NCBI GenBank assembly: GCA_038245295.1
Contig: JBBRSP010000038.1
Span: 1 to 50,879 of the forward strand
DNA: 50,879 nt
Direction of reading: 5' to 3'
DNA from: Candidatus Binatia bacterium
GTDB lineage: Bacteria; Desulfobacterota; Binatia; HRBIN30
A program made the position numbers and the translations under genes. The notes below the pieces were generated by a model that worked only from the letters and a program-made list of their open reading frames with translations, ran no database searches and was not told the origin of the DNA. Below, piece by piece: positions 1,931 to 18,398 of the stretch. Positions within the stretch are counted from its first letter, which is position 1. Every line of letters begins with the position of its first letter.

Positions 1931-2710
1931 ATGAAACGACTCACCAAACTCAGTCGCTCGGTTGCCGGTAAAGTCGCCATCATCACCGGCGCCGCCAGCG
2001 GCATGGGCCGCGCGACGGCGCATCTGTTTGCCGACGAAGGCGCCAAGGTAGCGATCGCCGATCACAATCAGGGCGGACTCGAAGCCGTGCTCGCTGAATT
2101 AAAATCGGTCGGTGCCGACGCCCACGCCTGGCCACTCGATGTCAGCGACGGCGAGGCCGTGCGGCAGATGGTGCAGCAGGTTGCAGAGCGCTTTGGGCGC
2201 ATCGACATCCTGGTCAACAATGCCGGTGTCAGCCTGCCGGCGCCGATCAGTGCCGACGACTACGAAGACTCGTGGTCGCGCACCATGGCGGTCAATCTCA
2301 CCGCCTACACGAAGCTCGTGCGTGCGTGCCTACCGCATCTGCTCAAGAGTGGCGGCGGCCGCATCATCAACATCGCGTCCACCGAAGGCCTCGGGGCGAC
2401 GGCGATGATCAGTCCGTACACGGCGAGCAAACACGGCGTCATCGGCCTCACCCGCGGCCTCGCCGTCGAACTCGGACCACAAGGCATCACGGTAAACGCC
2501 GTGTGCCCCGGGCCGATCAACACCAGCATGACCGCCGGCATCCCCGACGATGCCAAAGACAAGTTCGCCCGCCGTCGTGTGCCGCTGCGGCGCTACGGCG
2601 AACCGGAAGAGGTGGCACATGCGACGCTGAGCCTCGCCCTTCCGGCCGCGTCGTACATCAACGGCACGACGATCGTCGTCGACGGTGGGATGACAATCAA
2701 GAATACTTGA
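1931..2710 (+). CDS. short-chain dehydrogenase/reductase (SDR)
   Basis: TGAASGMG, NNAG and catalytic YTASK motifs; RBS GGAGGAAGG upstream. Confidence 0.95.
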   Translation: MKRLTKLSRSVAGKVAIITGAASGMGRATAHLFADEGAKVAIADHNQGGLEAVLAELKSVGADAHAWPLDVSDGEAVRQMVQQVAERFGRIDILVNNAGVSLPAPISADDYEDSWSRTMAVNLTAYTKLVRACLPHLLKSGGGRIINIASTEGLGATAMISPYTASKHGVIGLTRGLAVELGPQGITVNAVCPGPINTSMTAGIPDDAKDKFARRRVPLRRYGEPEEVAHATLSLALPAASYINGTTIVVDGGMTIKNT

Positions 2711-3340
2711 ACCTAGGCGGGGGCGCGGGCAGACGTGACGTACAAAGCCGAGATCACGATCGACCAACTCCTACGAATGACGAGTGGCCTGGCGTTGGAT
2801 GAATCGGGAAGTCCGCTGAGCCCCGCGGCGAGCATGCCATTGAAGGCGTGGGCCAGTTGGTGGCCGATGTCATTGCCAGTCTCGGCGGCGCGTAGTGGCC
2901 ATCTTCTGAAACTCGAGCGGCTGTTGGCCCGTCTCACACGCCTCGCCCCTGAAGCTGTAGAGACAGCGGGGTTCCGCTGGTTCATTGCACAGGTTGTTGG
3001 AGGCCGAGGGAGTCCAACAAGGGTAGGCGGCTACGCGGTTTGGCGGGTTTCTTTGTGCACTCTTCAGCACCCCATGCCACCGATCGTAAGCAGCGAGTTG
3101 GCGCATGCGAACATGGGCTCGTCGTGGCGTGTCGGGGACGACGGAGTCGAGTCCCGCGGCTGCCACGCAAGCTTCGGCCCGACCCGATCACCACGACGCC
3201 CATACTGCTGGTCCACAGGCGCCGGGTTCGACGCAACCGGCTCCCCTGTGGGGTCGGCGGATATGCTGCCGCGCGTGTGCGCGGCGATGGAAACGATCCT
3301 TGCCTTCACCTAAATTGCATGGCTGATCTCAGGATCACTC

Positions 3341-4843
3341 ATGTCGAATCCCTACTGTGAGGCACTCAAGATCGACGTGCCACGGCTTGAAGCGTTGCGC
3401 GAGCGGCGTCGGGTGTCGACGTTCGCGCTGTTGATCGTGGCGTTGCTGGAGCGTGGCGCTCCAATGACGCTTCTGGAGGTGGCGCGGCGCTGCGAGCAGG
3501 CCGGGTTTGGCATGGTGCCGGAGCTGTTGATGGCCCTACAGCGCTGCCGGCCGGGGCGTCCGCCCGTCTGGCGCGATGGCGATCTCTATGCACTTGATCC
3601 GCACGATGACGAGTTGAGTCTGCAGGTCTTCATGCTCGGGCTGCGCCCGCCACGCGTAACGCGGTTGGCGCCGACGCGCCAACCGCCGGCGCCTCTCCCG
3701 GGGCCCGAGCAACGATTGACGGTAGGCGAGCTCGACGATGCTTGGAGGGGTGTACATCTCTACGCCTGGTCGCGGCGCGGGATGGTTCTGGCGATCCTCG
3801 ATGCGCACGATCGGCCGCTGCCCCCCGCCGAGGTGGTGGCGTTCGTCGAGGCAAGATCGAAGGTCCACGGGTTGACTACCGACGACAAGAAATTCAAGCG
3901 CCCTGACTGTCCCGTCGAGATCCTTGCCGATGGCCGCTGGGCCATCGCGGCGGGAATGGCAGGAGTGGCAGCGCTGGCGGCCGCTCGCGTTGCCGTGCGC
4001 GAACGACTGGCAATGCTGCGGCGATGGAGCGCGCCGCGTATGGACCCTGCTGAGATCGAGGCACACCGACGCGTTGTGGAGCAGGAGCGGGAGATGCACG
4101 CTGGCGAGCTCGCCAAGCTCCGCCGGGTGATCGTCCACGCCTGGCCCGCATCGAAGCCGCAGGCCATCGTCCTACTTGACGTCAACACCCGTGCGCTTCA
4201 GACGTTTGTCGGCGCCGAGCTCAGCGCAATGCCGCAGCACCTCGATGCGTTCGACGTCATCGCTGCGCTGGGTGCGCGCGCACTCGTGCGCGTGCTCGGG
4301 TACGAGCCGGGCCGGCGACGCCTGGCTGATCTGAGCCCACCCCAGAAAACCAAGCAGATGAACCGACGTGGTCGGATCCTCAGGATCACGCCGGAGCTAC
4401 TGATCCAGGGTTCGTGCGGGATTAGCGAGCCCTTCAGTGTGCCGGCCAAGCTCCAGGGTTATCTGAAGGCGGGCAAGCTCGATATGCTGCGCCGCCGGCT
4501 CGAGGCCGACGCCAAGTCGCTCTACGCCCTGTACCAGTACGCGCGTTTGCACGGATGCGTGCGCCTGCGTTGGGGGTTCGTCGACGAGGGTATCGCTGCC
4601 CCATGGGTGCATCGCGACGAGCCAACGCTCGGGGCTCTGAAGGGTCAGGCCCTGCAACTCGGGCTGGCACTAGAGGTGGTGACCGGCAGCGCCCCCGGCT
4701 GGACCGACCCATGGGCGCGCGTCCGCCGCTGCACCGTGCACAAGCCGGCCGGCAGCTACTGGAGCTATCTCGTCGGCGACGACGGCGCGCCGATCGACGA
4801 CGCCGATGTCCAACTCGCCCGCATCGTCGCCGTGCTGCACTAA
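3341..4843 (+). CDS. hypothetical protein, possibly two winged-helix-like segments
   Basis: 500 aa ORF with AGGA upstream of the ATG; segments LLERGAPMTLLEVARR and ILDAHDRPLPPAEVVAFV resemble each other. Confidence 0.7.
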   Translation: MSNPYCEALKIDVPRLEALRERRRVSTFALLIVALLERGAPMTLLEVARRCEQAGFGMVPELLMALQRCRPGRPPVWRDGDLYALDPHDDELSLQVFMLGLRPPRVTRLAPTRQPPAPLPGPEQRLTVGELDDAWRGVHLYAWSRRGMVLAILDAHDRPLPPAEVVAFVEARSKVHGLTTDDKKFKRPDCPVEILADGRWAIAAGMAGVAALAAARVAVRERLAMLRRWSAPRMDPAEIEAHRRVVEQEREMHAGELAKLRRVIVHAWPASKPQAIVLLDVNTRALQTFVGAELSAMPQHLDAFDVIAALGARALVRVLGYEPGRRRLADLSPPQKTKQMNRRGRILRITPELLIQGSCGISEPFSVPAKLQGYLKAGKLDMLRRRLEADAKSLYALYQYARLHGCVRLRWGFVDEGIAAPWVHRDEPTLGALKGQALQLGLALEVVTGSAPGWTDPWARVRRCTVHKPAGSYWSYLVGDDGAPIDDADVQLARIVAVLH

Positions 4844-5082
4844 GCTGCCCCGCGAGCGAGGCGGGGCTTTGGCGGCGTCATGGTGGCAGTCGTACTCTCG
4901 CGGTCCTGCTTCCAAGGCCCGCCGGTTGCAACTCGCCCAAGCCATGCCTGCGACACTTCGCCCCATAGCCAGAACCAGGGTTTGCCGGTACGCTGCCGGG
5001 TTGACAGCGCGGCTTCCTCAGTAGGCTTGGCGTCCAGTGGTCTGATCGTTGTAAGTGGGGGCGGAGAGGTAGGGAATACGGT

Positions 5083-8000
5083 ATGAGGTGCAGGAATTTC
5101 TCGATTCCCGCGGTCATGATTCTTACGGCAGTGTCGTTCGTATCGTTGATCGCTACGCCCAACCGCACGCAGGCCAGTTGCATCGGGGACTGCAACCACG
5201 ATGGCCGGGTGATCGTAAACGAATGTATCGCCATGGTGAAAGTGTCGCTTGGCGACGCAACGTTGTCGCTGTGTGCAGCCGGGGACGGCAATGGGGACGG
5301 TGAGATCACCGTCGATGAAATTATCGACGCGGTGGCGGCGGCTCTCGACGGTTGTCCCGTAACACCCACGCCGACGCCGCACCCGCAATCGGTTGCCCGC
5401 CAGTGGGATGAAGAGATCCTGGGCGCCATCCGCATCGATTTCCCGCGTCCGCCCGTGCATGCGCGCAATCTTTTCCACCTCTCGGTCGCCATGTGGGACG
5501 CTTGGGCGGCGTATGATCGGTCGGCCCGCGGCTACCTCACGACCGAGAAGCACACCTCGACCACCATCGACGCCGACCGCGCCGAGGCAATTAGCTACGC
5601 TGCGTACCGGGTGCTGTCCGAGCGTTACGCGATCTCGCCCAACGCCGCCACATCTCTCGCGTCGTTCAGCGCGCGCATGACGCGGCTCGGTTATGACCCG
5701 AGCATCAGCACCACTGTCGACGATACGCCGGCGGCCATCGGCAACCGGATCGCGCAAACGGTGATTGCCTATGGCCTTGGCGACGGATCGAACGAAGCCA
5801 ACAACTACACCGACCCAACCTACGTTCCGGTGAATCCCCCGCTCATCGTCGCCTTTCCCGGCACCACGATGGACGACCCGAATAGCTGGCAACCTCTCGC
5901 CTTGTCGCATCAGGTCACACAGAATGGGATTCCTATCCCCGGCAACGTCCAGGTCTACGTCGCCCCACAGTGGGGCCACGTCCTCTCCTTCGCCGCCGAT
6001 CTCAGTGACCTTCTCCCCAACCCGCCGCCACGGCTGCACGATCCGTCGACCGACCAGGATTTCAAGCAGGCAGCCGTGGACGTAATCCGCGCCTCGAGCC
6101 ATCTAACTCCGGACGACGGCGTGACCATGGACATTTCGCCGAACGGGTTCGGCAATAATCCGCTAGCTACGAACGACGGCAGTGGATACGCGGTGAACCC
6201 GGTCACGGGACAATCGTACACCGCCGAGATCGTCAAGCGCGGCGACTTCAGGCGGGTCATCGCCGAGTTTTGGGCTGACGGGCCGAACTCCGAGACGCCG
6301 CCCGGGCATTGGAACGTCCTTGCGAACGCCGTCTCCGACAGCCCACAGATCGACAAGCGTATCGGCGGTACGGGCCCGGTCGTCGACGACCTCGAATGGG
6401 ACGTGAAGCTCTACTTCGCGATCAACGCTGCCGAGCATGATGCCGCCTACGGCTGTTGGGGAACGAAACGGATCTACAACTCCACCCGGCCCATCTCGAT
6501 GGTCCGGTATATGGGCGAGTTGGGGCAATCGTCGGATCCGACAGGACCGTCGTACCACCCCGACGGTCTCCCCCTCGTCCCTGGGCTAGTCGAGGCAATC
6601 ACGCCCGAGTCGAGTGCGCCCGGCCAGCGGCACGCGGCCCTGGCCGCCAATGTGGGCGACATCGCGGTTTACGCTTGGCCCGGCGCGCCCACTGATCCGA
6701 CGGAACAGTACAGCGGTGTGCGGTGGATCCGCGCCAAGGATTGGGCGCCCTACCAAAAAGACACGTTTGTGACGCCGGCTTTCGCCTCGTACACGTCGGG
6801 ACACAGCACCTTCAGCCGCGCCGGCGCCGAAGTGCTCGCGCATTTCACCGGATCGCCGTTTTTCCCAGGCGGCTTAGGTGAGTTTCTTGTGGCGGCGAAT
6901 GCTTTCCTCAAATTCGAGCGCGGTCCGAGCACGGACATCAAACTCCAGTGGGCAACATACTACGACGCCGCGGACCAGGCCGGCCAGTCGCGGATCTGGG
7001 GTGGAATTCACACCCTCGCCGACGACTTTACGGGGCGCTTCATGGGATCCACCATCGGCGACAACGCCTACGACAAGGCCCGCAACTATTGGGAGCCCGG
7101 ATCGGCGGCTACAGTCACGCCCGGCCATACGCGGACACCCAGTCCAGTTCCGGCAACCCCTGGTGGCACTCCGGTTGCGACAACCACGGTGCAGGTGTCG
7201 CCCACGGTGACACCCACACCCACGGCAACCGCTGGGTTGATCAGCACGCCGACGCCGACACCTGAGATCGGCGAGATCCATCCCGTGCTCCAGAAGTTGC
7301 CGGGAGCCCTTCTATCGATTACCGGCACATCCAGCGCCGACGTCTACACCGTGGGCGCCGATGCAAACGACGGCACCGGACCGCTGGTGCTGCATTACGA
7401 CGGACAGACATGGCAGCATCTCGCAACGGGCGTCGCCGGAACATTGTGGTGGATCAGCGTCACACCGATCGATGACAGCTTCTACATGGCCGGCGATCAA
7501 GGGTTGATTCTGCGTTACACACCGTCGACGGGCGCTTTCCAGTCCTACGTCACTCCAACCAAGGGTGCGACGCTCTTCGGCATCTGGGGATCGGACGCCA
7601 GCCACATTTGGGCCGTGGGCGGTGATTTGTCCAATCAAGACACTGGCGGGGTCGTCTGGCGCTTCGATGGATTGGCGTGGCACGTCGACACCACACTAGC
7701 CGAGGCACGCCCGGCTGGTATCCCGACGCTCTATAAGATCTGGGGGCGCAATCAGAATGACATCTACGCCTGCGGCCGCCTGGGGTTGATCTTCCACTTC
7801 GACGGTACGCAGTGGAAGCAGGTCAGCATCGATGCCAGCGGTGTCGATGCGACCGATTTGCCGCTCTTCACGGTGCACGGGAACGAGACGCAGGTAGTTG
7901 CCACGGGCGGCCTGTCTACCGGTGTCATCTACGAGTTGCAGGGCAGCACGTTCGAGAACCGAGCGCCGGCTGGAACGCCGCCGCTAAACGGCATCTTCCT

Positions 8001-8235
8001 GGGGCCCGACGGTACCGGGGTTGCGGTCGGCATCGCAGGCACCATCGCCTCACGCTCTCCGACGGGCTGGCAGTTGCCGACAGGCATCAACACGCCCCTC
8101 GATTTCCACGGCGCATGGATTGACCCCGACGGTGGCGTGTGGGCGGTCGGCGGCGATCTCAGCACCAGCCTAGATCAAGGTTTAGTTGTCTACGGCGGAA
8201 CATCCACGGTCGGTAGCACCATCTCACCCCCCTAG
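5083..8235 (+). CDS. secreted multidomain vanadium-dependent haloperoxidase/PAP2-superfamily protein (dockerin-like N-terminus, Pro/Thr linker, C-terminal beta-propeller-like repeats)
   Basis: Signal peptide; CIGDCNHDGRV...GDGNGDGEITVDE; motifs KRIYNSTRP, PAFASYTSGHSTFS, QSRIWGGIH; TPTPT linker; repeats such as LFGIWGSDASHIWAVG, LYKIWGRNQNDIYACG, FHGAWIDPDGGVWAVG. Confidence 0.85.
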   Translation: MRCRNFSIPAVMILTAVSFVSLIATPNRTQASCIGDCNHDGRVIVNECIAMVKVSLGDATLSLCAAGDGNGDGEITVDEIIDAVAAALDGCPVTPTPTPHPQSVARQWDEEILGAIRIDFPRPPVHARNLFHLSVAMWDAWAAYDRSARGYLTTEKHTSTTIDADRAEAISYAAYRVLSERYAISPNAATSLASFSARMTRLGYDPSISTTVDDTPAAIGNRIAQTVIAYGLGDGSNEANNYTDPTYVPVNPPLIVAFPGTTMDDPNSWQPLALSHQVTQNGIPIPGNVQVYVAPQWGHVLSFAADLSDLLPNPPPRLHDPSTDQDFKQAAVDVIRASSHLTPDDGVTMDISPNGFGNNPLATNDGSGYAVNPVTGQSYTAEIVKRGDFRRVIAEFWADGPNSETPPGHWNVLANAVSDSPQIDKRIGGTGPVVDDLEWDVKLYFAINAAEHDAAYGCWGTKRIYNSTRPISMVRYMGELGQSSDPTGPSYHPDGLPLVPGLVEAITPESSAPGQRHAALAANVGDIAVYAWPGAPTDPTEQYSGVRWIRAKDWAPYQKDTFVTPAFASYTSGHSTFSRAGAEVLAHFTGSPFFPGGLGEFLVAANAFLKFERGPSTDIKLQWATYYDAADQAGQSRIWGGIHTLADDFTGRFMGSTIGDNAYDKARNYWEPGSAATVTPGHTRTPSPVPATPGGTPVATTTVQVSPTVTPTPTATAGLISTPTPTPEIGEIHPVLQKLPGALLSITGTSSADVYTVGADANDGTGPLVLHYDGQTWQHLATGVAGTLWWISVTPIDDSFYMAGDQGLILRYTPSTGAFQSYVTPTKGATLFGIWGSDASHIWAVGGDLSNQDTGGVVWRFDGLAWHVDTTLAEARPAGIPTLYKIWGRNQNDIYACGRLGLIFHFDGTQWKQVSIDASGVDATDLPLFTVHGNETQVVATGGLSTGVIYELQGSTFENRAPAGTPPLNGIFLGPDGTGVAVGIAGTIASRSPTGWQLPTGINTPLDFHGAWIDPDGGVWAVGGDLSTSLDQGLVVYGGTSTVGSTISPP

Positions 8236-8269
8236 GACGCGGCGCGCCGTTTGCGATAAGGCTTGCGGC

Positions 8270-9595
8270 ATGTCAGCGATCCGCAGTCTGGAGCCGCCCG
8301 CGGCCGCACCGAGCGACGCAAGAGAGATCAACCTCGCCTGGCTGTTGCGTCTGCGCTGGGTTGCCATCATCGGCCAGGTAACGATCATCCTCGGTGTGAC
8401 CGTTCTCCTTGGCATCGTTTTACCGCTGCCGCCGATCGCCGCGATCATCGGTTTTGAGGTCGCGACCAATGCCGCCTGTGCATTATGGGCGCGACGCGCC
8501 TTTGCTGTCACGGATGCGGTTCTCGTCGGCTTGCTGACAGCCGACGTCGTTCTACTGACGGCCTTGCTCTACCTTACCGGTGGGCCCGTCAACCCATTCA
8601 GCTTTCTCTATCTCGTACACATCGCGCTTGGAGCGGTGACACTGCGACCCGTGCACACATGGGGTTTAACCGCGCTGGCGTTGCTCGGCTTCGGCCTGTT
8701 GTTTTTCCTACCCGCTTGGCCGGGCGGCACCGACATGGCGACGATGCACGCCGATCACGAGCACATGCGTTTGCACCTGGAAGGCATGTACGTTGCCTTC
8801 GGTGTTGCCGCGGTGTTCATCGTCTACTTCGTGCAGCGCGTGACCGCGGCATTGGCGCAGCGTGATGCCGAGCTTACCGCGGCGCGCAGCCTGGCGCAGC
8901 GGCACGAGATGTTTGCTTCTCTTGGTACGCTGGCGGCCGGTGCTGCCCACGAGCTGGCCACGCCGCTGTCGACCATCGCCGTTGCCGCGCGTGAGATGGA
9001 GCGGAACCTTCAGCGTGGCGTCAGCAGCGGTGAAGCCCTCGACGACATCCGTTTGATTCGGCAACAGGTCATGCGTTGCCAGAACGTCCTGCAGCAGATG
9101 GCGGCGGATGCCGGACAGGGAATGGGCGAGAACCTCGAAGTGGTGCGCGCGGCGGACCTCTTGGATCAAGCACTCGCAGGATCGATCGACGAGGCCGGTG
9201 TCGAAGTTGCGGTCGACGACGATGCGGCGACGCTTGTGGTCACCGTTCCGCCGCATGCCATGGCGCAGGCACTGCGCGGAGTGGTGCGCAACGCCCACCA
9301 GGCCTCGTCGTCAGCGCAGCCTGTCCAGGTTCATGTGTGTCGCGACGGTTCCGATCTGCACATCGAAGTGCGTGATGGGGGAGCAGGTATGGAACCGTCC
9401 ATCCTTCAACACGCGGGTGAGCCGTTCTTCACCACCAAGGCACCCGGCGAAGGTATGGGGCTGGGATTGTTCCTGACGCGTAGCTTGCTTGGCCGCCTGG
9501 GCGGACGGCTCGAGCTTTCGTCGGTGGCCGGGAGCGGAACGTCAGCCGTGCTCGTTCTTCCCGTTGCATCCAACGGCCGCCGGGCGGACCAGTAG
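8270..9595 (+). CDS. regB: RegB/PrrB-family sensor histidine kinase
   Basis: WLLRLRW start, TM helices, GGPVNPF quinone-binding motif, H-box AAGAAHELATPL, RC redox Cys (RCQNVL), HATPase EPFFTTK..GMGLGL; ATG at 8270 chosen. Confidence 0.88.
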   Translation: MSAIRSLEPPAAAPSDAREINLAWLLRLRWVAIIGQVTIILGVTVLLGIVLPLPPIAAIIGFEVATNAACALWARRAFAVTDAVLVGLLTADVVLLTALLYLTGGPVNPFSFLYLVHIALGAVTLRPVHTWGLTALALLGFGLLFFLPAWPGGTDMATMHADHEHMRLHLEGMYVAFGVAAVFIVYFVQRVTAALAQRDAELTAARSLAQRHEMFASLGTLAAGAAHELATPLSTIAVAAREMERNLQRGVSSGEALDDIRLIRQQVMRCQNVLQQMAADAGQGMGENLEVVRAADLLDQALAGSIDEAGVEVAVDDDAATLVVTVPPHAMAQALRGVVRNAHQASSSAQPVQVHVCRDGSDLHIEVRDGGAGMEPSILQHAGEPFFTTKAPGEGMGLGLFLTRSLLGRLGGRLELSSVAGSGTSAVLVLPVASNGRRADQ

Positions 9596-9599
9596 CCCG

Positions 9600-10148
9600 G
9601 TGGTCGAGATTTCTCATCCCTCCATTCTCATCGTTGACGATGATGATGTCTTTCGCGAACGCCTGGCGCGCGCCTTCCGCGACCGCGACTTCGAGGTGCG
9701 TACAGCAGCCGATTATGACGAGGCAATGGTGTTGGCGCGCACCGAATCGCCCGAGCTCGCGGTACTTGACCTGAAGATGCCGGGTCGGTCGGGCCTGGAG
9801 CTGGCCCGCGACCTCCATGGGCTCGACGAATCGACGCGCATCGTCATACTCACTGGCTACGGCAGCATCGCGACGGCGATCGAAGCGGTACGCGTCGGCG
9901 CGACCTACTATCTTCCCAAGCCGGCGGACGCCGACGATGTCCTCACCGCCTTCGCGCGCGGAGAAGCCCCGCCACTGGAGCCACCACGGTCCGACTATCT
10001 TGCCCCGTCACTGGCGCGCACGGAATGGGAACACATCAACCGCGTTCTCTCCGACTGCGGCGGCAACGTTTCCGAAGCAGCGCGTCGTCTTGGTGTGCAT
10101 CGCCGCTCCCTGCAGCGCAAGCTGCAGAAGTACCCGCCGGCGATGTAG
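9600..10148 (+). CDS. regA: RegA/PrrA-family response regulator
   Basis: Receiver ILIVDDD..DLKMPG..TGYGSIATA..YLPKP plus Fis-type HTH EWEHINRVL..GNVSEAARRLGVHRRSLQRKL; GTG 4 nt after regB stop. Confidence 0.92.
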   Translation: MVEISHPSILIVDDDDVFRERLARAFRDRDFEVRTAADYDEAMVLARTESPELAVLDLKMPGRSGLELARDLHGLDESTRIVILTGYGSIATAIEAVRVGATYYLPKPADADDVLTAFARGEAPPLEPPRSDYLAPSLARTEWEHINRVLSDCGGNVSEAARRLGVHRRSLQRKLQKYPPAM

Positions 10149-10168
10149 AGGGGCATAGGACCAGAATG

Positions 10169-10200
10169 ACGAAGGCCGCCTTTGATGGCGGCCTTCGTTT
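10169..10200. terminator. intrinsic terminator hairpin between convergent regA and lysyl oxidase genes
   Basis: Perfect 12-bp stem ACGAAGGCCGCC / GGCGGCCTTCGT, loop TTTGAT, followed by TT. Confidence 0.75.
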
Positions 10201-10217
10201 AGATTCAGGGATTTCTG

Positions 10218-11075
10218 CTAACGCGGCGCGCGCGTCGGCCGCGGAGGCCGGGTAATCGGCGGTCGTGTCGGGCGGGGCGGCCGCGTTGTCCCGGGCGTCG
10301 GCGTCGCCGTCGGCACGGGTATCGTCGTCGGGCTCGGGATCGGTCCCGTGGCGATACGGCCAGGGACGTTGACGCTGACGTAGCCGGAGTTGTCGCCGAG
10401 GTCCTCGTCGACCTCCAGCAGGAAGTTGAGAGGATCGGCGACATTGACCAGGAAGTACTGACCAGCCTCGACCGGCTTGTCGCGTCCAACATCGAGTTCG
10501 ATGTACTGCTCCGGATAGAAGTCGTCGTAGACGTCGGCCCAACCGGCCGAGATGCCCTGCTCGCTCTCCTGAGACAGGCAGTTGCCATACACCTGGCGCG
10601 AGCCGCTGAAGCCGCGCAACGGTTCGATATCGATCAAGCAGAACGACAGTTTCGAAGCGCGCGCCACGATCGGGCCCGTGAGCGGGTCGTCTTTGCGTAG
10701 CTGATACTCGGCGAAGTCGTTGAGGTGCCAGTGGTTGTGCGTCGCGTGGAACTCGAACGTGCCGGCGTCGTGAGTGCAGGTTGTGCCGTCGGACTTCTGC
10801 ACGACCTGAGTCGCCAGTGTGACCTTCTGGCCAAACTGGGTCTCGATGGTCTTACCCTGAATGCGCAGCGGCCCCTGGCCGACGTTGGCGAAGCGCGAGC
10901 TGAAGTAGAGGCGGCGCGTCCCACCACGTTCGACGACACGTGCGCGCGCCGGCGGTAGGGACTTCATGTCCGGCAGAATGACCGCCGGATCGTTGCGGTC
11001 GCACTCCTCGGCGTGTGCGAGTGAGAACGACGATAAGATCAAAAGCCCGATGAACGCGGCAGAACGAAAGCCCAT
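10218..11075 (-). CDS. secreted lysyl oxidase (LOX)-family protein
   Basis: Signal peptide; Cu-talon FEFHATHNHWH; SKLSFCLID (LTQ Lys region); QGISAGWADVY (LTQ Tyr region); Pro/Thr/Arg tail; RBS GGAGG. Confidence 0.88.
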   Translation of the reverse strand: MGFRSAAFIGLLILSSFSLAHAEECDRNDPAVILPDMKSLPPARARVVERGGTRRLYFSSRFANVGQGPLRIQGKTIETQFGQKVTLATQVVQKSDGTTCTHDAGTFEFHATHNHWHLNDFAEYQLRKDDPLTGPIVARASKLSFCLIDIEPLRGFSGSRQVYGNCLSQESEQGISAGWADVYDDFYPEQYIELDVGRDKPVEAGQYFLVNVADPLNFLLEVDEDLGDNSGYVSVNVPGRIATGPIPSPTTIPVPTATPTPGTTRPPRPTRPPITRPPRPTRAPR

Positions 11076-11248
11076 CAATACCTCCTAGCCAAAGCGGGGC
11101 GGACGCTACATCCCGCCCCGGGGGTTGGCAAGCTCTTTTCGTGCAATAGTTTCCCGGTTTGCCCGCGACAGGATGCACGCCGTCGGGGCGCCGGCAAGAC
11201 GAAGCGAGTCTTGCGAGCGGTCCGTGTTGCAAGTAGGCTCGGCCCCAC

Positions 11249-11647
11249 GTGTTCGCTCACCTGCGCCAGCCATTTTACTCATCAGCGCTTCTGTCGGCGC
11301 TACTGATGGCCGTGATCGCCGGCGGGATGGCAAAGGAACCCTCGTGCGACCACTGCCCCAAGAGCTGCCCGATGCATGCGGGCCGGCTTGGCTGTCACGG
11401 CGGCGGCGCGGCAAAAGCGGGGTCGATACCGCATGACTGCGCCAAGCATCAGGGCGGCGGCCTTGGATTTACCCAGACCGGTTGCCACCACGGCACAAGC
11501 GGGGTCACGACGATCGCCGCACGTGCCGTCCTGCCCGTCCCATTGCGCCTGGTGACGTTGGCAGCCGCAGACACAGTCGTCGCCGAGGTCTCGGTAGCCC
11601 TGCCACAAGGCTATCTTGCCCGGCCCTTTCACCCGCCGCGCGTCTAG
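11249..11647 (+). CDS. small secreted Cys/His-rich protein, DUF2946/CutF/CruR-like putative leader ORF
   Basis: N-terminal hydrophobic segment, CDHCPKSCPMH, further CH/CHH motifs, C-terminal RPFHPPRV. Confidence 0.6.
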   Translation: MFAHLRQPFYSSALLSALLMAVIAGGMAKEPSCDHCPKSCPMHAGRLGCHGGGAAKAGSIPHDCAKHQGGGLGFTQTGCHHGTSGVTTIAARAVLPVPLRLVTLAAADTVVAEVSVALPQGYLARPFHPPRV

Positions 11648-11887
11648 TTCTCGGTCGCCGCGTCAAGCCCCGCCGCGACTTGCCAAAAACTGAGATCTTA
11701 ACGAACCGACGTTGTCGCCTACGTGTTCGCGTGGTCACGGCCAGCGTGCCTTTGCGTGCGCTCGGCCTCCGAGCGGCAGCGACCACGAGAATCGGCAGCC
11801 CACTCGTGGCCGGCGATGAGCCCGTCCGTGGAGCAATCGGGCCCGCGTGCTTCGGTGCACCGGCCCATCCATCAAGGAGAACTGTTT

Positions 11888-12946
11888 ATGCAACCAAAAC
11901 TCACCAAGCTGCTCAGCAGCGCCGCACTTGTCCTATGTTTTCTGCCTACGCTTGCCGCGGCTCACGGGCCGACATTGATGATCGGCTCGACCGCGGCGGG
12001 ATCTGGCGCGTTGGCCATCGAGTTTGAATTCACCAGCGTGGCGCGCACCGGCTTCAGCACGCCGGTCGGCCCAGACAGCCTGTACACCGGAGCTTCACCC
12101 TCCCTCGCACAACTCACTGTCGACACGGCGCCGCTGTTCGCCCTCGCCGCATCTACCCAGGTGTCGCTCGAAGTCACCCGCGTCGACGAAGGCAAGACGG
12201 CGGTAAAGATCGGCCCCACGGTTCTCGATGCCGTGGGTGAGAGCGCCGTCATCGGTACTACTCCGTTCACGGAACAGCATCCGGAATGGCAGCTGTTGCT
12301 CAATCTCCCGGAAGGCGAGTTCGGCGAGGGCGACATCTCGTTCAAGCTGACCACGACCTCGGGTTCCTACACGTCCTCCGACGAATACACGCTGCATCTC
12401 TCCAACGGCGTTCTCGGGGCCGTCGATTACGACGTCAACGCCTACGACAGCACCAGCGTTAAGTGCCAACAGACCGTCGGTATCCAGACGCGCACCTTCG
12501 TGCAGAAGAAGCTGGCGATCCTGCGTGCCTGTCTCGACAAGGCGGAGGTGGCGCGCGCCAAGGAATCGCTGCTGGTCGCGCCGGCGGATCTGGCCGCCAA
12601 GCAGGCCGCCGCCGAAAAGGCGTGCGCCGATGCCACCGGCAGCGGGCCCGACAGCGGCACGATGCTCGGCAAGATCGACAAGGCACGCCAGGTCGCCTTC
12701 TCGGCCATCCAGAAGAAATGCGGCACACCCAATCCGCCGTCGATTCCGGCAAGTGCTTCGGGCGATTTCAGCGACGACGATATGCAGCAACACCTGGGGC
12801 TGGCGGGATGCCGTGCCGAGGAACTGGCAGGCGCCGAATACGGTGGTGGTCGCGAGGCGATCGAGGGCTACGCCGTGCGTGCCTCTCAGGGTGGCGACCT
12901 ATTGGGTGATCATCTGTCCTGCCTGAAACCAACAGCGGCCTTGTAA
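11888..12946 (+). CDS. secreted protein: unannotated His-initiated 'HPEWQ' domain plus Cys-rich helical domain
   Basis: RBS AAGGAG; signal peptide ending AAA|HGP; GST..GSGAL, QHPEWQL, FKLTT..Y.SS..Y.L motifs; C-terminal KCQQ..RACLDK..KAC..KKC..GC..SC. Confidence 0.8.
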   Translation: MQPKLTKLLSSAALVLCFLPTLAAAHGPTLMIGSTAAGSGALAIEFEFTSVARTGFSTPVGPDSLYTGASPSLAQLTVDTAPLFALAASTQVSLEVTRVDEGKTAVKIGPTVLDAVGESAVIGTTPFTEQHPEWQLLLNLPEGEFGEGDISFKLTTTSGSYTSSDEYTLHLSNGVLGAVDYDVNAYDSTSVKCQQTVGIQTRTFVQKKLAILRACLDKAEVARAKESLLVAPADLAAKQAAAEKACADATGSGPDSGTMLGKIDKARQVAFSAIQKKCGTPNPPSIPASASGDFSDDDMQQHLGLAGCRAEELAGAEYGGGREAIEGYAVRASQGGDLLGDHLSCLKPTAAL

Positions 12947-13007
12947 GCGAATCGAGGGGTGCGCTTTTGCCGACCGGCAGGAGCGCGCCCCTTCGTTGAG
13001 GTGAACT

Positions 13008-13868
13008 ATGTACCGCTTCGCAAAGTACTTCGTGGCCCTTGGGCTGCTTTTGCTGCGGGCCGGGGAAGCGTCAGCGCACGGCGACGTGATGTTGGTTGGA
13101 TCGACACAGACGAATGCCGGCGCCCTGGTCGCGGACTACGACTACAGCATCGTGTCGCACGCAACCCCAAGTGTGAGTCTCGGCGGCACGACGATTTATA
13201 CAACGATCTACCCGAGCTTCGAATGGCCGAGTGTCGACGATGGCACGTTGCATCTCCTGAAAACCGGCACCCCGATACTGATACAGATCGTCACCATTGA
13301 TCCAGGGCTCGCCGTTCGCCTCGGCAGCACACGCCTCGACGCAGCCGGCAAGAGCGGCAAAATTGGCGACGTGACGGCGGGTGACCATGTCCACCCCGAG
13401 TGGCAGATCAGCTTGCCCGACGGTGTTATCGCGACCTTCCACGTCACCTTTCGTCTGACGACAACAACGCGACCCTACACCCAGTCGGCGGTCTACGAGT
13501 TGGTCTTCGATAACGCCCCAGTCTCTGCCAGCCCGACACCAACGGCGACAATCGATCCAACGCCGGAACCAAACGCAACAGCAACACCTACGGCCACTCC
13601 GACGCTAGCGGCGACCCCCACCCCTACCCCTAGCCCTTCGTCTACGAAAATGGCGACCGCGACGGCGTCCGCAACGACGACACCGACCACCACGTTTGTG
13701 CGTGGCGATGCCAATTGTGACGGTACTGTCAGTGCTGCGGACCTGCCGGCAGAGGTTGCCGTTTTGGCGACCACTACAATTGTTCGCTGCGGCACAGATC
13801 TCGACGACAACGGCGTCATCGACGAACAAGACGTGTCGCTGCTGATCGAGGGGATCTTCACTCCATGA
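13008..13868 (+). CDS. secreted protein: His-initiated 'HPEWQ' domain, Pro/Thr linker, dockerin-like domain
   Basis: RBS GAGG; signal ASA|HGD; HVHPEWQI; TPTP linker; GDANCDGTVSAADL...DLDDNGVIDEQDV. Confidence 0.82.
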   Translation: MYRFAKYFVALGLLLLRAGEASAHGDVMLVGSTQTNAGALVADYDYSIVSHATPSVSLGGTTIYTTIYPSFEWPSVDDGTLHLLKTGTPILIQIVTIDPGLAVRLGSTRLDAAGKSGKIGDVTAGDHVHPEWQISLPDGVIATFHVTFRLTTTTRPYTQSAVYELVFDNAPVSASPTPTATIDPTPEPNATATPTATPTLAATPTPTPSPSSTKMATATASATTTPTTTFVRGDANCDGTVSAADLPAEVAVLATTTIVRCGTDLDDNGVIDEQDVSLLIEGIFTP

Positions 13869-14902
13869 ATACCGCGTCAGCCCGCCACCAGAGGAGCAGA
13901 AGAACGACCATGAGGCTTGGAACAACCTTCCGGCGCACGCCGGTCTTCCGTTTCGTGCGACGCCTATGTTCGAGCGTCGTCTTGATAGGCCTGTTGTCCA
14001 GTGCGGCGACGCGCGCCTTGGCGTGTGACCTGTGCGCCATCTACACGGGCATCGAGCAACGCGAGAGTCGAACCGGCATCTACGCGAGCCTCGCGGAACA
14101 ATACTCGGATTATGAAACATTGCTGCGCGACGGCAGCGATGCGCCCAACCCGGCGGGCGAGAGGATGCATAGCTTCATCACGCAAGTTGGCGCCGGCTAC
14201 AACTTTACGCCGACGCTGGCGCTGCAGGTCAACCTGCCGATCGTCTCGCGGGTCTTCCGCCGTCAAGAAGCGGCGGGAATCGTTGATGGCGACGAGTCAG
14301 GCATCGGCGATCTGTCGCTGCTCGGCAACTGGGCCACCTACGCTAATGTCACGGAGAACACTGTTACCCGGATCACCCTGCTCGGCGGCCTCAAGTTACC
14401 GAGCGGCAACTCGCGTCGAATCAAGGAGGAGCTGAGCGAGGCCGAAGGCTACGAGAGTGGAGTCCACGGTCACGACCTGGCGCTCGGCTCGGGCTCGATC
14501 GACGGTATTGTCGGGGCTCAGCTGTTCTCGAGTTGGCAGCGCGTGTTTGTCACCGCGACGGTGCAGTATGTGGCGCGTACCGAAGGGTCGTTCCACTACA
14601 CCTATGCCAACGACTTGCTCTGGAGCGTCGGACCGGGAGAGTTCGTCGCCCTGGCACACGACTACACGCTTGGGGTGCAGGCCGAGCTCTCCGGGGAGAC
14701 GAAGGGCAATGATACACTCAACGGCCAAAAGGGCAGTGACACGGCGATCACAGCGCTCTACCTCGGCCCCGACCTGCGCTTCACGTGGGGCACATCGATG
14801 GGCGCCAATCTCGCCGTCGATCTTCCGGTTCTGCAGAACAACTCCGCTCTGCAGCTCGTGCCCAACTTCCGATTGCGCGGCGGATTGACGTGGCGCTTCT
14901 GA
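13865..14902 (+). CDS. putative outer-membrane beta-barrel 'transporter' (MetA-pathway/SphA-like) with N-terminal CxxC
   Basis: ATGA overlap with upstream stop (alternative ATG 13910); mature start ALA|CDLC; GIGD, KLPSG, HGHD-LGSGS motifs; alternating beta pattern; C-terminal TWRF. Confidence 0.78.
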   Translation: MNTASARHQRSRRTTMRLGTTFRRTPVFRFVRRLCSSVVLIGLLSSAATRALACDLCAIYTGIEQRESRTGIYASLAEQYSDYETLLRDGSDAPNPAGERMHSFITQVGAGYNFTPTLALQVNLPIVSRVFRRQEAAGIVDGDESGIGDLSLLGNWATYANVTENTVTRITLLGGLKLPSGNSRRIKEELSEAEGYESGVHGHDLALGSGSIDGIVGAQLFSSWQRVFVTATVQYVARTEGSFHYTYANDLLWSVGPGEFVALAHDYTLGVQAELSGETKGNDTLNGQKGSDTAITALYLGPDLRFTWGTSMGANLAVDLPVLQNNSALQLVPNFRLRGGLTWRF

Positions 14903-14990
14903 TGGCGGCTCGGTCATGCATCGAAGAGAAGAATAGAGGCGTCCCCGCTAAGGTCGCCGCCACGCCGGGCACTGCAACCATGTGCCAAAA

Positions 14991-15699
14991 ATGAACGCGG
15001 ATGCACACAGGCCGGCTTCCAGCCGGAACTAAATCGGGCTGCGCCGAATCTGCCCGCAACCCAACCCCCGCCCCGCAGAACGAATTCAACAGGATGGAGA
15101 GGATAAGCAGGATGGAACAGGGAACCCGTTCTTGTCGTGTTCATCCTGTTTATCCTCTCCATCCTGTTAACTTGCGCGTCCTGCGACGAATTGGAACGCG
15201 AGTAAGACGAAGCTGGCTTTGCCCGCAGACCAACGCAGGCCTACTGCCGCAGATGAATGGGATGAACACAGATGGCTTGCCAACCGCCAAGAGGCGCGAT
15301 TCGGGCCTGCGGCCTGCATGGGTATAACAACCGTTCCATTTCTTCCCGGAGCGCCCAGACTTTAGTTCCGTGTTTTGTCACCCTGACGTGTCATCCCGGC
15401 GAAAGAGACTGTCGGAAAACCAAAGTGAAGCAACGTCATCCCGGCGAAAGCCGGGATCTCCTCGAGTGGAAGGCCAAAAATGCTGGGGAGATACCGGCTT
15501 TCGCCTGTATGACGGGGTGTTTTGCGTTGTTTGAAACGATGAACCAGAGAAAACCGACAGTCTCGAAAGATCTCCTCGATTGGAAACTGTGGAATGCTTG
15601 GGAGATTCCGGCTTTCGCCGGAATGACGCAGGTCGGGCTGCTTAGCCTGAGTTGGTTCCGGCTGGAAGCCGGGCTGTGTTCATCCCATTCATCTGTGGC
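14991..15699. repeat. nested cluster of REP-like palindromes
   Basis: ~50-nt inverted pair 14991-15040 / 15644-15692; 27-bp stem 15088-15114 / 15142-15168; 26-nt inverted pair 15246-15271 / 15674-15699; GTCATCCCGGCGAAAGCCGGGATC-type palindromes 15390-15627. Confidence 0.85.
15405..15564. mobile_element. MITE-like element (GAGACTGTCGG termini) inserted in a palindrome loop
   Basis: Perfect 11-bp TIR GAGACTGTCGG / CCGACAGTCTC, flanked on both sides by GAAA; contains a full palindrome at 15435-15513. Confidence 0.7.
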
Positions 15700-15791
15700 G
15701 GGAACTCGCGCCGGCAGTGGTTGGACATCACCGGCTCGTACCGCTTCAACCCACCAAGTTCGCAAGCGGTCGACTGAGAACGAAGGAAACC

Positions 15792-16325
15792 ATGCCGATA
15801 CGACGCCAAGCGATAATTCCCCTGATGAGCGCAGTGCTGTTCGCCCTGACTCTCGCGGTTCACATCGTCCACGCCAGCGTTGTAGTGGGCAACGCTCTTC
15901 CGAGTATCGAGCTCGTTGATTGGCAAGGACGTCCGTTTCGGCTCGCCGATCTGCGCGGCAAAGTGGTCGTGATCGACTTCTGGGCGAGTTGGTGCACGAT
16001 CTGCCGCCAGACCCTGCCGTCGGTCGAAGCAATGGGGCAGCACTTCCCAGCGGGTCAGGTCGTGGTTCTGGGAATCAACATCGACAAGGACGCGGCTACG
16101 GCCGACCGTTTTCTGCGTGACGCCCTTCCGGCGGCGACGATGACGATGTTGCGCGATCCGCAGGGCGCCGTGATGTCACGCTTCGGCGCTGAGGGCATGC
16201 CGGCGATCTATGTCATCGATGCTGATGGAATCGTTCGTTTCGCTGAAGCCGGCTACGGGCCGGCGCGGCTATCCGAGGTTGAGTCGGCGGTGACCCGAGC
16301 TTTACCGCCGACGCCGGCGCTCTAG
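15792..16325 (+). CDS. TlpA/ResA-family periplasmic thiol-disulfide oxidoreductase
   Basis: Signal/TM segment, LADLRGKVVVIDFWASWCTIC, GMPAIYVID; RBS AAGGA. Confidence 0.92.
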   Translation: MPIRRQAIIPLMSAVLFALTLAVHIVHASVVVGNALPSIELVDWQGRPFRLADLRGKVVVIDFWASWCTICRQTLPSVEAMGQHFPAGQVVVLGINIDKDAATADRFLRDALPAATMTMLRDPQGAVMSRFGAEGMPAIYVIDADGIVRFAEAGYGPARLSEVESAVTRALPPTPAL

Positions 16326-16359
16326 CGGTCAGCCTTCTTCCGATTGGTGGAGTGCCACT

Positions 16360-17406
16360 TCAAAAGCGCCAGACCAGGCCGCCACGCAGGCGATAGTCCG
16401 GGACGATCTGCAAGGCAGAATTGTGCTGCAACGCCGGGATGTCGGCGGCGAGCTCGGCGCTGAGCGTCGAACCCCAGGTGAAATGCACGCCGGGCCCGGC
16501 ATAGAGGGAAGTAATTCCCGTGTCGCCCTGGCGCACGCCGTTCAGATCGTCGGTGCCTTTGGTTTCCATGCTGACCAGGGCCTGGATCCCCAGCGAGTAC
16601 GTATGGGTGAGCAGGGCGTAGAAGCCGGGACCGCCCGATACGATCAGCTCGTTGGCGAACTCGTAGCCGTATGAGCCCACCGTGCGCGCGCTGTACTGGC
16701 CGCTCATCGTCGCGAACCAGCGATCGTAGGTCGTCAGCAATTGCGCACCGAGGATGACATCGGTTGAGCCGCTGCCGAGGGTGAGGTCGTGGCTATGGAT
16801 GCCGCTCGGCGGCCCTGTTCCTGTCGTATTATGGTGGGGGCGGAAGCGCGAGCCACAGCCGAACACCGGCGGGATATTCGGGTCGGGGACACAGGTCGAA
16901 CCCGAACCAAGCTCTTCGCGCAAACGGCGCGAGCTGCCGGTCGGCAACTTGACCCCCACCAGGCTGGAGAGACGAACGACCATCGACTCATCGACATAGG
17001 AGAACAATGTTCCGGTGCCGCTGATCGAGACGTCGCCGACGCCGCTTTCATCGCCGCTCACGACACCCGTGCTTTCGACACGGCGGTAGGCGCGGCTGAT
17101 GATCGGTAGATTGGCCTGCACGCTGAACCGCGGATGCAACGTATAGCCAGCGAACACCTGCGTGATCGAACTGTCGAGGTGCTCGTCATACGGGTTGGCA
17201 ACGTCGCTGCCACTCTTCTGCAGCGTGCCGAAGTGGGTAAATTGCTCGGCCAATCCCAGGCGCACACCGGTGCGAGCCTCCTGCAACTCGGTCGCGGTAT
17301 AGACCGCACAGACGTCACAAGCCCAGCTGCGCGCCACGCCTGTAATCAGGAGCCCGCCAAGGACAAGGGTCAGATACAGCTCGGAAACGAGGCCTGAACG
17401 CCGCAT
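16360..17406 (-). CDS. second CxxC outer-membrane beta-barrel, paralogue of 13865..14902
   Basis: SWA|CDVCAVY; shared GDESG.GD, KLP.G.SRR..EEL, HSHDLTLGSGS, ETKG.D.LNG, NSALQ.VP..RLRGGL.WRF; extra Cys/His loop (CVPDPNIPPVFGC..PHH). Confidence 0.8.
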   Translation of the reverse strand: MRRSGLVSELYLTLVLGGLLITGVARSWACDVCAVYTATELQEARTGVRLGLAEQFTHFGTLQKSGSDVANPYDEHLDSSITQVFAGYTLHPRFSVQANLPIISRAYRRVESTGVVSGDESGVGDVSISGTGTLFSYVDESMVVRLSSLVGVKLPTGSSRRLREELGSGSTCVPDPNIPPVFGCGSRFRPHHNTTGTGPPSGIHSHDLTLGSGSTDVILGAQLLTTYDRWFATMSGQYSARTVGSYGYEFANELIVSGGPGFYALLTHTYSLGIQALVSMETKGTDDLNGVRQGDTGITSLYAGPGVHFTWGSTLSAELAADIPALQHNSALQIVPDYRLRGGLVWRF

Positions 17407-17476
17407 GACGAGCGCCTCGTTAGACGAGTGGCGATATCGCCGAAAGGTGGCGAATTGTCGCGGTCCAGGGGCGCTC

Positions 17477-18142
17477 TTACTCCGGTTGCCCCTGTTTGGG
17501 CACCAACTCCAGCGTGTAGGTGGATGACTCACCGTAGGCTGCGGAGACGGAGGTCAGCTTTACCGAAACGTTGTGACCCGTGGCGCTGCCCCCTGGAGGA
17601 ACTTGCAGCTGCCACTCGAGATCCTGATGGATCCCCGGAGTGGTGCCGATGTCGATGGATTGCCCGGCCGTTGTCAGTTCCACGTCCTCGAACTTGAGTT
17701 TGGTGCCGGCGTCGATCGCCACGACTTGCAGGGTGATCGGAACGCCGTCCGGCAGATGGAACAGAGGCAAGCTCGGTTGGTCGTCTTCGGCCTCTTCGAA
17801 GCCGGGTTCGGTGCCGATGTAGAAGGCGGTGCCGCCCTCGCAGGTGTCGCCGGTGCCGCCGATACAGGTCGAAAGGGAGATCGACACCTGTGAGGCCTGG
17901 TCGATGGTCAACCGTCCACCCCCTGCGATCGTTGAACCGAAGATGTTCTCATTGGGCCGTTCGGTTGGGGTTGATGTCGGCAGCGGCGTGTTCATCCGCG
18001 GCGGCGTTGCCGTAGACGTCGCCGCCGGTGTGACAACATCGTGATCGTCGGAGCCGCACCCGGCAAGAACAACCAGCATGCCACACGCCGCCAAGTTGAG
18101 GGCAAACATGAACTGACGTCGAATGGGTAACGGATGCAACAT
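17477..18142 (-). CDS. lipoprotein carrying a third copy of the 'H-x-x-EWQ' domain
   Basis: RBS AGAGGAG; lipobox LAGC; Pro/Thr linker; GSTIAGGGRL, EPGF, IGTTPGIHQDLEWQL, VKLTS..YGESSTYTL. Confidence 0.8.
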   Translation of the reverse strand: MLHPLPIRRQFMFALNLAACGMLVVLAGCGSDDHDVVTPAATSTATPPRMNTPLPTSTPTERPNENIFGSTIAGGGRLTIDQASQVSISLSTCIGGTGDTCEGGTAFYIGTEPGFEEAEDDQPSLPLFHLPDGVPITLQVVAIDAGTKLKFEDVELTTAGQSIDIGTTPGIHQDLEWQLQVPPGGSATGHNVSVKLTSVSAAYGESSTYTLELVPKQGQPE

Positions 18143-18227
18143 GTTCGAAGCTCTCCTCTGTCGATCACGTGCGGCGTTCGAGCCGCGCCACCGCATCCTC
18201 GTATACCCACACGGGGGCAACGGAAAG

Positions 18228-18244
18228 TGCGGCAAATCGTCGCA
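18228..18244. promoter_or_regulatory. RegR/RegA box
   Basis: TGCGGCAAATCGTCGCA = GCGGC-N5-GTCGC with AT-rich spacer, in the divergent intergenic region between the lipoprotein and sulfatase genes. Confidence 0.55.
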
Positions 18245-18398
18245 GGCTGATCGATCCGGCGCGTCGTACTCGATTGGTGGTTGGTCCGTTTGATTCCCAA
18301 GGGTAGGCAACGTCGCCGCCTCGGTTTTCAAATGGACCCACCACCGCTCCATTGCGCCAGCTTGACTTCGACGGGTGCCGAGAACAGGTTGCGGCGCG

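Follow-up and report, generated by a model that had tools for sequence, protein, structure and literature searches.

A predicted CxxC-plugged outer-membrane barrel linked to RegBA in Candidatus Binatia, and its candidate role in copper entry

Contig JBBRSP010000038.1 of the Candidatus Binatia bacterium assembly GCA_038245295.1 (50,879 nucleotides, referred to here as the window) carries, between positions 5083 and 18244, two related genes for small outer-membrane barrels, together with genes for secreted histidine-bearing proteins, a RegB/RegA-type (RegBA) redox regulator pair and a TlpA/ResA-type thioredoxin (Table 1). We propose, with a probability of about one half, that the barrel module is a TonB-independent, thiol-gated route by which copper enters the periplasm. 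We infer the metal, the direction, the gating and the clients of the module from sequence; copper appears the likeliest metal, as suggested by linkage of the barrel to MbnP and by copper-type neighbours. Each type of partner has been described before, and so has the fold to which the barrel belongs. What appears to be new is a metal-linked barrel of the COG4313 fold, a surface domain that we name HxHPxW after its motif, and the exchange of a RegA box for a leader peptide ahead of the barrel gene.

An earlier reading of the window (the original prediction) had described the region as a metal capture and loading locus, and all of the open reading frames (ORFs) it named were confirmed, as were their positions. 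It had counted two units that each pair one surface-domain gene with one barrel; both units exist, but unit 1 holds two surface-domain genes. The TlpA-like gene does lie between the units as described, but it is co-directional with unit 1, from which about 700 bp of genome-wide repeats separate it, and it is probably the last gene of that unit. Short palindromic repeats between barrel 1 and this gene recur at up to about 175 places in the genome, including contigs C1 and C3.

Both barrels carry the CxxC and HxH motifs noted earlier, the latter as HxHD. Homologues number at least 1160 (E≤0.001) and come from several phyla, with members in cultured Geomonas strains (L008, L014), and the closest named homologues are from Candidatus Binatia. 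Among the 120 best homologues, the N-terminal CxxC is present in 119 and HxHD in all. The structural model of barrel 1 has a helix at residues 2-15 followed by 12 strands, and it superimposes on Pput2725 of COG4313 (Z 24.5, root-mean-square deviation 2.4, 249 residues aligned) and on FapF (Z 24.2, deviation 2.7, 248 aligned), with autotransporters next at Z 19.6. The prediction is thus an outer-membrane pore of the COG4313/FapF fold, with 12 strands and a plug. Model residues 4-293 align with FapF 88-406, and the FapF plug, reported to span A89-G101, enters from the periplasmic side and has its N terminus facing the periplasm (PMC5557850); since model residue 4 corresponds to FapF 88, the predicted place of Cys2 and Cys5 is the periplasmic mouth, which puts the CxxC at the end of the plug helix that faces the periplasm. 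The histidine pair is predicted, from strand order and residue ranges, to lie in the outer loop β5-β6, after a P-S/T-G motif at the base of that loop (P127-S/T128-G129, the PTG motif) that is conserved in the family.

The channels of COG4313/PF13557 (Pput2725, PDB 4RL8; SphA; TcpY) are alike in having a 12-stranded barrel occluded by the N-terminus and the P-T/S-G motif, but their identity to the window barrel is 15%, and the latter adds the N-terminal CxxC and the loop HxHD. They neighbour genes of aromatic and lipid catabolism, whereas the window barrel neighbours metal- and redox-type genes. The PF13557 profile matches neither window barrel at E≤0.1; among 36 family members it matches 7, the best at 5.3e-8. 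The amyloid exporter FapF of Pseudomonas (PDB 5O65) has the same barrel and helical plug; its periplasmic coiled coil and fap operon are not found with the window barrel, whose predicted mature protein starts at the plug helix and whose plug differs in having a CxxC. Membership of FapF was rejected because the periplasmic coiled coil before the plug is missing. Sequence searches against solved structures gave no match for barrel or surface domain, and family scans of the window proteins gave none for the leader, the three surface proteins or the two barrels, except for one weak dockerin tail.

Conservation of gene neighbourhoods was surveyed in 201 genomes of the class, probably Binatia (200 without the window's own), of which 88 have the barrel, 50 RegB, 39 the surface domain and 38 MbnP. 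Linkage, defined as both genes lying within 5 kb on one contig, was counted among genomes having both, on 76 barrel genomes that remain when the own genome and 11 with only weak barrel matches (E 7.7e-11 or worse) are left out. Many assemblies of this set are fragmented, which lowers all linkage counts alike. The second sample comprises 65 related barrel loci from several phyla; CxxC conservation in these loci was not used as evidence, because one seed pattern was that motif and the argument would be circular.

The linkage to RegBA that had been claimed for the locus is borne out in relatives: the barrel is linked to RegB in 32 of 42 genomes, one of these links resting on a short barrel fragment. 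The regB gene stands in all four orientations relative to the barrel (10, 8, 7 and 7 cases), so that rearrangement has not broken the link. Of the 76 genomes, 19 have close TlpA relatives (the closest, E≤1e-24), and in 15 of the 19 these are linked to the barrel. The co-occurrence with MbnPH that the original prediction had suggested checking was also found, barrel and MbnP being linked in 17 of 31 genomes (two of the links rest on short barrel fragments). The surface domain is linked to the barrel in 19 of 34 genomes and to MbnP in 17 of 24. However, the pair of surface domain and barrel does not hold as a fixed unit, given that 42 of the 76 barrel genomes have no detected surface domain. The conserved core is the barrel plus a regulator, often with TlpA.

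The MbnP/MbnH pair (TIGR04052/TIGR04039) is thus a frequent neighbour of the barrel that lies outside the window locus; in the own genome MbnPH is on contig C15 (above the Pfam cut-off) and a fourth surface-domain gene is on C10. In relatives L020, L100, L102 and L103, MbnP and the HxHPxW domain are fused in one open frame. A fuller locus, L003, has TlpA, MbnP, MbnH, four surface-domain genes (with orthologues of all three here), two leaders and a barrel. MbnP is reported to bind copper, its biological role being still open (PMC11951088). In the 65 loci, markers were counted with one example per family, the families being drawn from a scan of 136 of 190 picked neighbour proteins. Within 6 kb of the barrel, 15 loci from several phyla carry a copper-type gene (MbnP, NosL, SCO, PCuAC or CusAB) and 7 carry an iron- or zinc-type gene (FeoAB, ZIP or CDF), six of the 7 alongside a copper-type one. 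The gene at 15792 is a TlpA/ResA-type thioredoxin with a CxxC at family level; membership of Rhizobiales TlpA (NF047696) was rejected (64.1 bits against a cut-off of 230), and the ResA score is 74.5 against 170.

The window regulator pair shares with RegB/RegA (PrrBA, RegSR) the quinone motif (GGPVNPF at 104), the redox cysteine (in QVMRC, at 266), the DNA-binding helix and the consensus of the binding site. These families are by far the best for the two proteins, yet the scores are under the NCBIfam equivalog cut-offs, which 0 of the 201 class genomes pass. RegB/RegA systems with SenC/PrrC have the gene order regB-senC-regA. Instead of SenC, the window regBA neighbours are the barrel and the TlpA-type protein.

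The binding consensus of RegR was taken from bioRxiv 10.1101/2023.01.17.523660, and the exact box GCGGC-N5-GTCGC reported earlier in front of unit 2 is present at 18229-18243. In the window alone there are two exact matches, and 25 at one mismatch against 25.7 expected; since this one-mismatch scan equals chance, it was replaced by a test on relatives. The exact consensus occurs within 450 nucleotides upstream of the barrel CxxC in 8 of 26 genomes with RegB and in 0 of 12 without it. When the pattern was widened by one letter, after the data had been seen, the counts became 12 of 26 and 0 of 12, with 0.3 expected by resampling. By a matrix of 20 relatives' sites, none from the own genome, the site at 18227-18245 ranks first in the 6.63-Mb genome. 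Outside its training set, among the 65 loci, the matrix scores at least 14 in six (from Binatia, Lysobacterales, Bdellovibrionota and one further bacterium). Two of these six have regBA beside the barrel, and a RegB-like kinase is encoded in all five box genomes tested (the remaining four and a borderline fifth) versus one of five box-less genomes. Scoring of the sequence ahead of the leader, unit 1 and the TlpA-like gene gave no RegA-type site, the best score being 5.5. The second-best RegA-type site of the genome (C17:12531, score 21.4) lies about 270 nucleotides before a gene for a large secreted protein, and secreted genes of similar size follow the boxed operons of L106 and L107.

Unit 1 is headed by a small, possibly exported ORF with CxxC and His, which supports the earlier suggestion of a DUF2946-like leader; its hydrophobic N-terminal stretch was read by eye. 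The window leader is the genome's best match (E 1.5e-9) to a hidden Markov model of 14 leaders, including two duplicates, that stand upstream of the barrel in relatives. The features of this leader family, which precedes the barrel, are a hydrophobic start, CxxCPxxCPMH and terminal prolines. CutF-like leaders have been filtered by a length below 150 residues, PP in the last 15 residues and a same-strand gene within 1000 nucleotides, and the window leader has 132 residues, PP at -3 and a same-strand gap of 240 nucleotides (filters from PMC9973294). DUF2946/CruR proteins are defined by CXXC and RAPP about 45 residues apart (PMC9426467). Strict membership was rejected, as there is no PF11162 match at E≤0.1 and the CXXC-to-PP distance is 92 residues; it is 90-98 residues in related leaders, and the window leader ends in HPPRV. 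In the fold prediction, eight bases at the leader stop pair with the ribosome-binding region of the gene at 11888 (pair probability 0.8-0.97), an anti-Shine-Dalgarno pairing that 0 of 40 shuffles reach. Across 22 leader loci, for which start codons were picked by eye, the corresponding helix beats all but at most two of 40 shuffles in six, each with different paired letters.

Box and leader tend to replace each other. The 38 loci of the class that were compared, namely 28 from the 29 best barrel loci outside the own genome and 10 chosen by hand, comprise 19 with only the box, 9 with only the leader, 1 with both and 9 with neither. They are kin, and the matrix was trained on them; the set leans to RegB, because the added loci were chosen mostly for a nearby RegB. 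Among the 65 loci, 13 have this leader and 13 others a different small Cys/Pro ORF (mostly in Verrucomicrobia), and none of the six box loci has a leader of either type. In the own genome, unit 1 stands behind a leader without a box, and unit 2 behind a box. These sequences make it likely that one and the same barrel gene is controlled either through a RegA box or through a leader. A second leader family (GKHPCPLC ... LTPPPR), seen at L005:2786-3169 and in 12 further loci, mostly of Verrucomicrobia, lies directly upstream of the barrel and has no Pfam or NCBIfam match.

The surface domain, described earlier as a His-bearing ‘EWQ’ domain, has the family motif HxHPxW, and its predicted fold is a beta-sandwich. 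Searching with a single sequence gave no homologue other than itself, whereas a profile made from 10 copies retrieves 521 clusters (50% identity). In the best 150 homologues, the two His of the core are kept in 146 and 130 and the Trp in 124 of 151 aligned rows. Both motif His are kept in the window only by the copy at 13008 (HVHPEW); the copy at 11888 has EQHPEW, with Glu in place of the first His and a predicted mature N-terminal His, and that at 18142 has HQDLEW. The model of the 13008 domain is an all-beta sandwich to which no solved structure comes close: the lowest Foldseek E is 9e-4, and the highest Z, 7.6, is to pilins. Co-folding of this intact domain with barrel 1 scored 0.01, which speaks neither for nor against a pairing. 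The predicted N-terminal His of two copies raised the question of a histidine-brace or CopC-type site. The listed fold matches include no such protein, which neither supports nor excludes such a site; 33 of the 150 homologues have AH near the N-terminus. An ESM Atlas match (0.89) to a cluster named after MbnP is a lead only.

The exoproteins ZepA, reported to act in zinc uptake (PMC10957091), and choice-of-anchor M resemble HxHPxW in being secreted beta-sandwiches with His, with weak similarity over the C-terminal half; ZepA has a Zur-type context, as opposed to the copper-type context of HxHPxW, whose window tails are dockerin-like, Cys-rich or absent. Window proteins have no match to the All3515/ZepA profile (NF040463). 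Membership was rejected, since scores fall below the cut-off (P0207, 21.7 bits against 75) and the H-X2-9-H-F/Y-H motif and PEP-CTERM tail are missing. Choice-of-anchor M (NF038134) gives no hmmscan match, and profile-profile comparison with 15 such domains aligns HxHxxW at a probability of 22% (E 9e-4). Both similarities are leads rather than memberships. In L116, a ZepA-family gene (1411-2427) directly precedes a choice-of-anchor M gene (2536-3378), which fits a shared metal-scavenging role. Proteins that combine HxHPxW, a dockerin-like repeat and a C-terminal CxxxxCH domain are encoded at C10:85183-86529 of the own genome, L003:6172-7185 and L041:6034-7107; the C-terminal domain resembles a c-type cytochrome, and a possible role is that of an electron-carrying family member.

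If the barrel is a copper entry route, its outer His pair would pick up the metal, perhaps from HxHPxW proteins or MbnP, which would hold copper at the surface or in the periplasm. The TlpA-type protein would keep the plug cysteines reduced, and the reduced cysteines would take copper and release the gate; TlpA is reported to reduce the copper-site cysteines of ScoI and CoxB (PMC6669012). The clients would be cuproenzymes encoded elsewhere in the genome. RegB is reported to read the quinone pool (PMC3000548), and therefore an oxidase short of copper could activate the module by an indirect path: low copper would slow a copper-dependent oxidase, the quinone pool would become reduced and RegA would turn on unit 2. 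Such indirect copper sensing would explain why the RegA box and the leader replace each other. Unit 1 would read copper directly, with a ribosome stalling on the leader, opening the helix and freeing the ribosome-binding site of the next gene. As a whole, a new copper route made of a thiol-switch-plug barrel, a dedicated thioredoxin, HxHPxW feeders and two interchangeable sensors (ribosomal copper reading and RegBA back-pressure), with one barrel copy of this genome under each sensor, is possible but doubtful.

Several observations weigh against copper entry through the barrel. The two characterised barrel relatives move hydrophobic molecules or peptides, and Pput2725 is reported to pass polar solutes poorly (PMC4493636). 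None of the copper markers searched is seen in 50 of the 65 loci, FeoA stands beside the barrel in 5 of the 65, and an AztC-like ATP-binding cassette (ABC) system lies about 5 kb away in L096, L097 and L099. Two of the three window surface domains lack one motif His, and weak All3515/ZepA matches, which point to zinc-linked relatives, occur in 9 of 82 surface-domain members (best E 2.5e-6). On the side of regulation, L049 has regBA beside the barrel and no box, the genome's 45 best sites include no strong RegA site ahead of MbnPH or oxidase genes, and the anti-Shine-Dalgarno helix outdoes its shuffles in no more than six of the 22 leader loci and is absent in 8. CruR and CutF are reported to respond to copper oppositely (PMC9973294), and therefore the leader does not fix uptake over detoxification. 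The class genomes are also kin, so that their counts overstate independence.

The same architecture might serve zinc, iron or a mix of metals, with HxHPxW scavenging zinc like ZepA and the barrel as a general entry for divalent metals. Two Cys and two His also suit zinc, and the ZepA and choice-of-anchor M similarities and the FeoAB, ZIP and CDF neighbours point the same way, as does the report that CutF-like leaders are not all copper-specific (PMC9973294). The ZepA match, however, spans profile positions 138-220 of 227 and misses the ZepA His motif, while the MbnP fusions and the SCO, PCuAC and NosL neighbours are copper-type. Cys-rich leaders are reported to precede mostly copper genes (PMC9973294), and the need for a reductase to be greater at Cu(I) thiolate sites (PMC6669012). 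We regard this reading as unlikely. That the module instead handles excess copper, with a leader acting as in CutF (on with copper), a barrel that lets copper out and surface proteins that hold it outside, seems quite unlikely. The predicted helix after the leader does resemble that of cutF-cutO (PMC9973294), and CusA-like pumps are near the barrel in 3 of the 65 loci, but the copper neighbours mostly belong to assembly or uptake (MbnP, SCO, PCuAC, NosL, TonB receptor), a set reported for copper-repressed cruR operons (PMC9426467), and the scan of 136 neighbours showed no multicopper oxidase.

It is quite improbable, too, that the barrel is no metal channel and either exports small surface proteins like FapF or, through its plug cysteines, relays the reducing power of TlpA across the outer membrane under RegBA. 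FapF is among the top structural matches and has the same plug, the best structural matches of the surface domain are pilins and the most constant neighbours are RegB and TlpA. Against this, the coiled coil of FapF and fap-like genes are missing, over half of the barrel genomes have no detected HxHPxW gene to export, a Z below 8 reflects a common arrangement, and the invariant His pair, the leaders and MbnP would be left unexplained. The full model of the original prediction, in which all of 5083-18244 is one system loading metal onto the haloperoxidase and lysyl oxidase, is very unlikely. Both enzymes are secreted with intact motifs, the lysyl oxidase gene is divergent from the leader and lies near the barrel in L001, and a weak RegA-type site precedes the haloperoxidase gene. 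Yet neither enzyme holds up as a client, because none of the 31 (haloperoxidase) and 22 (lysyl oxidase) of the 76 genomes that have these genes carries them within 10 kb of the barrel; L001 is the one exception, for lysyl oxidase, among the 65 other loci, and the haloperoxidase was not found in any of the 20 barrel genomes of the same order. Haloperoxidases of this kind use vanadate, not copper.

Uptake of copper across the Gram-negative outer membrane is reported to be poorly known beyond a few TonB receptors (PMC12914433). Close parallels to copper entry by the barrel are the cruR-crtA(bfrG) operon of Bordetella and the cruR/CutF copper operons (PMC9426467, PMC9973294, PMC12914433), in which a Cys-motif leader likewise stands before an outer-membrane protein, and which share with barrel loci the terminal-proline leader and SCO, PCuAC, MbnPH and AhpC-TSA neighbours. 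The transporter of cruR-type operons is a TonB receptor, whereas barrel loci use a small plugged barrel, and the barrel-locus leader differs from CruR in its CxxC-to-PP distance (90-98 against 45 residues), its lack of a PF11162 match and its alternation with the RegA box. The absence of TonB receptors and ABC transporters, noted earlier, holds for the locus itself, but 4 of the 65 loci do have a TonB receptor no more than 6 kb from the barrel, and its orthologue in this genome is on contig C3, away from the locus. In the literature covered, outside which lie the supplements of PMC9426467 and PMC9973294 (possibly listing PF13557 genes behind such leaders) and most subscription papers, no metal-linked COG4313-fold barrel, HxHPxW domain or swap of box and leader is described. 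If copper entry is correct, the COG4313 fold would gain a metal role in a family spread over several phyla; the swap before the same gene offers a sharp test of RegBA as an indirect copper sensor, and the newly named surface domain HxHPxW is tied to MbnP.

Table 1. Features of the barrel locus and its surroundings in the window.
Feature	Position	Strand	Basis
Secreted vanadium-haloperoxidase-like protein, non-conserved neighbour	5083..8235	+	DUF6851, VCPO_2nd
RegB-type sensor kinase	8270..9595	+	NCBIfam NF033792 248.7 bits (cut-off 350); GGPVNPF, QVMRC, H-box
RegA-type response regulator	9600..10148 (start codon uncertain)	+	NF033791 177.6 bits (cut-off 250); EWEHI, HRRSLQRKL
Secreted lysyl-oxidase-family protein, non-conserved neighbour	10218..11075	-	PF01186 39.5 bits (cut-off 20.4)
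CutF/CruR-like leader ORF, heads unit 1	11249..11647	+	CDHCPKSCPMH, hydrophobic N-terminus, C-terminal HPP
Predicted anti-Shine-Dalgarno arm at leader stop	11645..11652	+	Pairs with 11877-11884 before next gene
Secreted HxHPxW protein with Cys-rich C-terminal domain, unit 1	11888..12946	+	Orthologue, same order, in L003
Secreted HxHPxW protein with Thr/Pro stalk and dockerin-like tail, unit 1	13008..13868	+	Model with predicted local distance difference test (pLDDT) 96.7; Dockerin_1 E 0.006
Barrel 1, unit 1	13910..14902	+	Model pLDDT 92.1; CDLC at predicted mature N-terminus, HGHD in loop β5-β6
Interspersed genome-wide repeats, not part of module	14990..15680		Other parts of the genome give as many as 175 BLASTN matches per position
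Exported TlpA/ResA-type thioredoxin, WCTIC	15792..16325	+	AhpC-TSA/Redoxin match
Barrel 2	16360..17406	-	48% identity to barrel 1; CDVC, HSHD
Weak RegA-type site just upstream of barrel 2	17445..17463		Matrix score 12.4, genome rank 149; distance as in relatives
Predicted lipoprotein (LAG-C) with HxHPxW domain (HQDLEW), heads unit 2	17477..18142	-	Orthologue in L003
RegA/RegR-type box upstream of unit 2	18227..18245		Exact published consensus; genome rank 1 by relatives' matrix

The haloperoxidase-like gene lies between a weak RegA-type site at 4948-4966 (score 12.3, rank 160) and regB, from which a gap of 35 nucleotides separates it, and it may have been inserted into the regBA transcript. 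Its C-terminal 315 residues (7288-8232) have no Pfam match and are 53% identical to another secreted protein of the own genome, encoded at C35:33211-34137. The lysyl oxidase has HATHNHWH, KLSFCL and WADVY, which we take to hold the three His, the Lys and the Tyr of the cofactor region, and at least four more lysyl-oxidase-like genes are present in the genome (C1, C9, C7 and C17), one of them 72% identical. A copper-monooxygenase-like gene flanks the L003 locus (L003:2-868) and has paralogues in the own genome on C31, C33, C16, C7 and C2; these proteins are possible copper clients.

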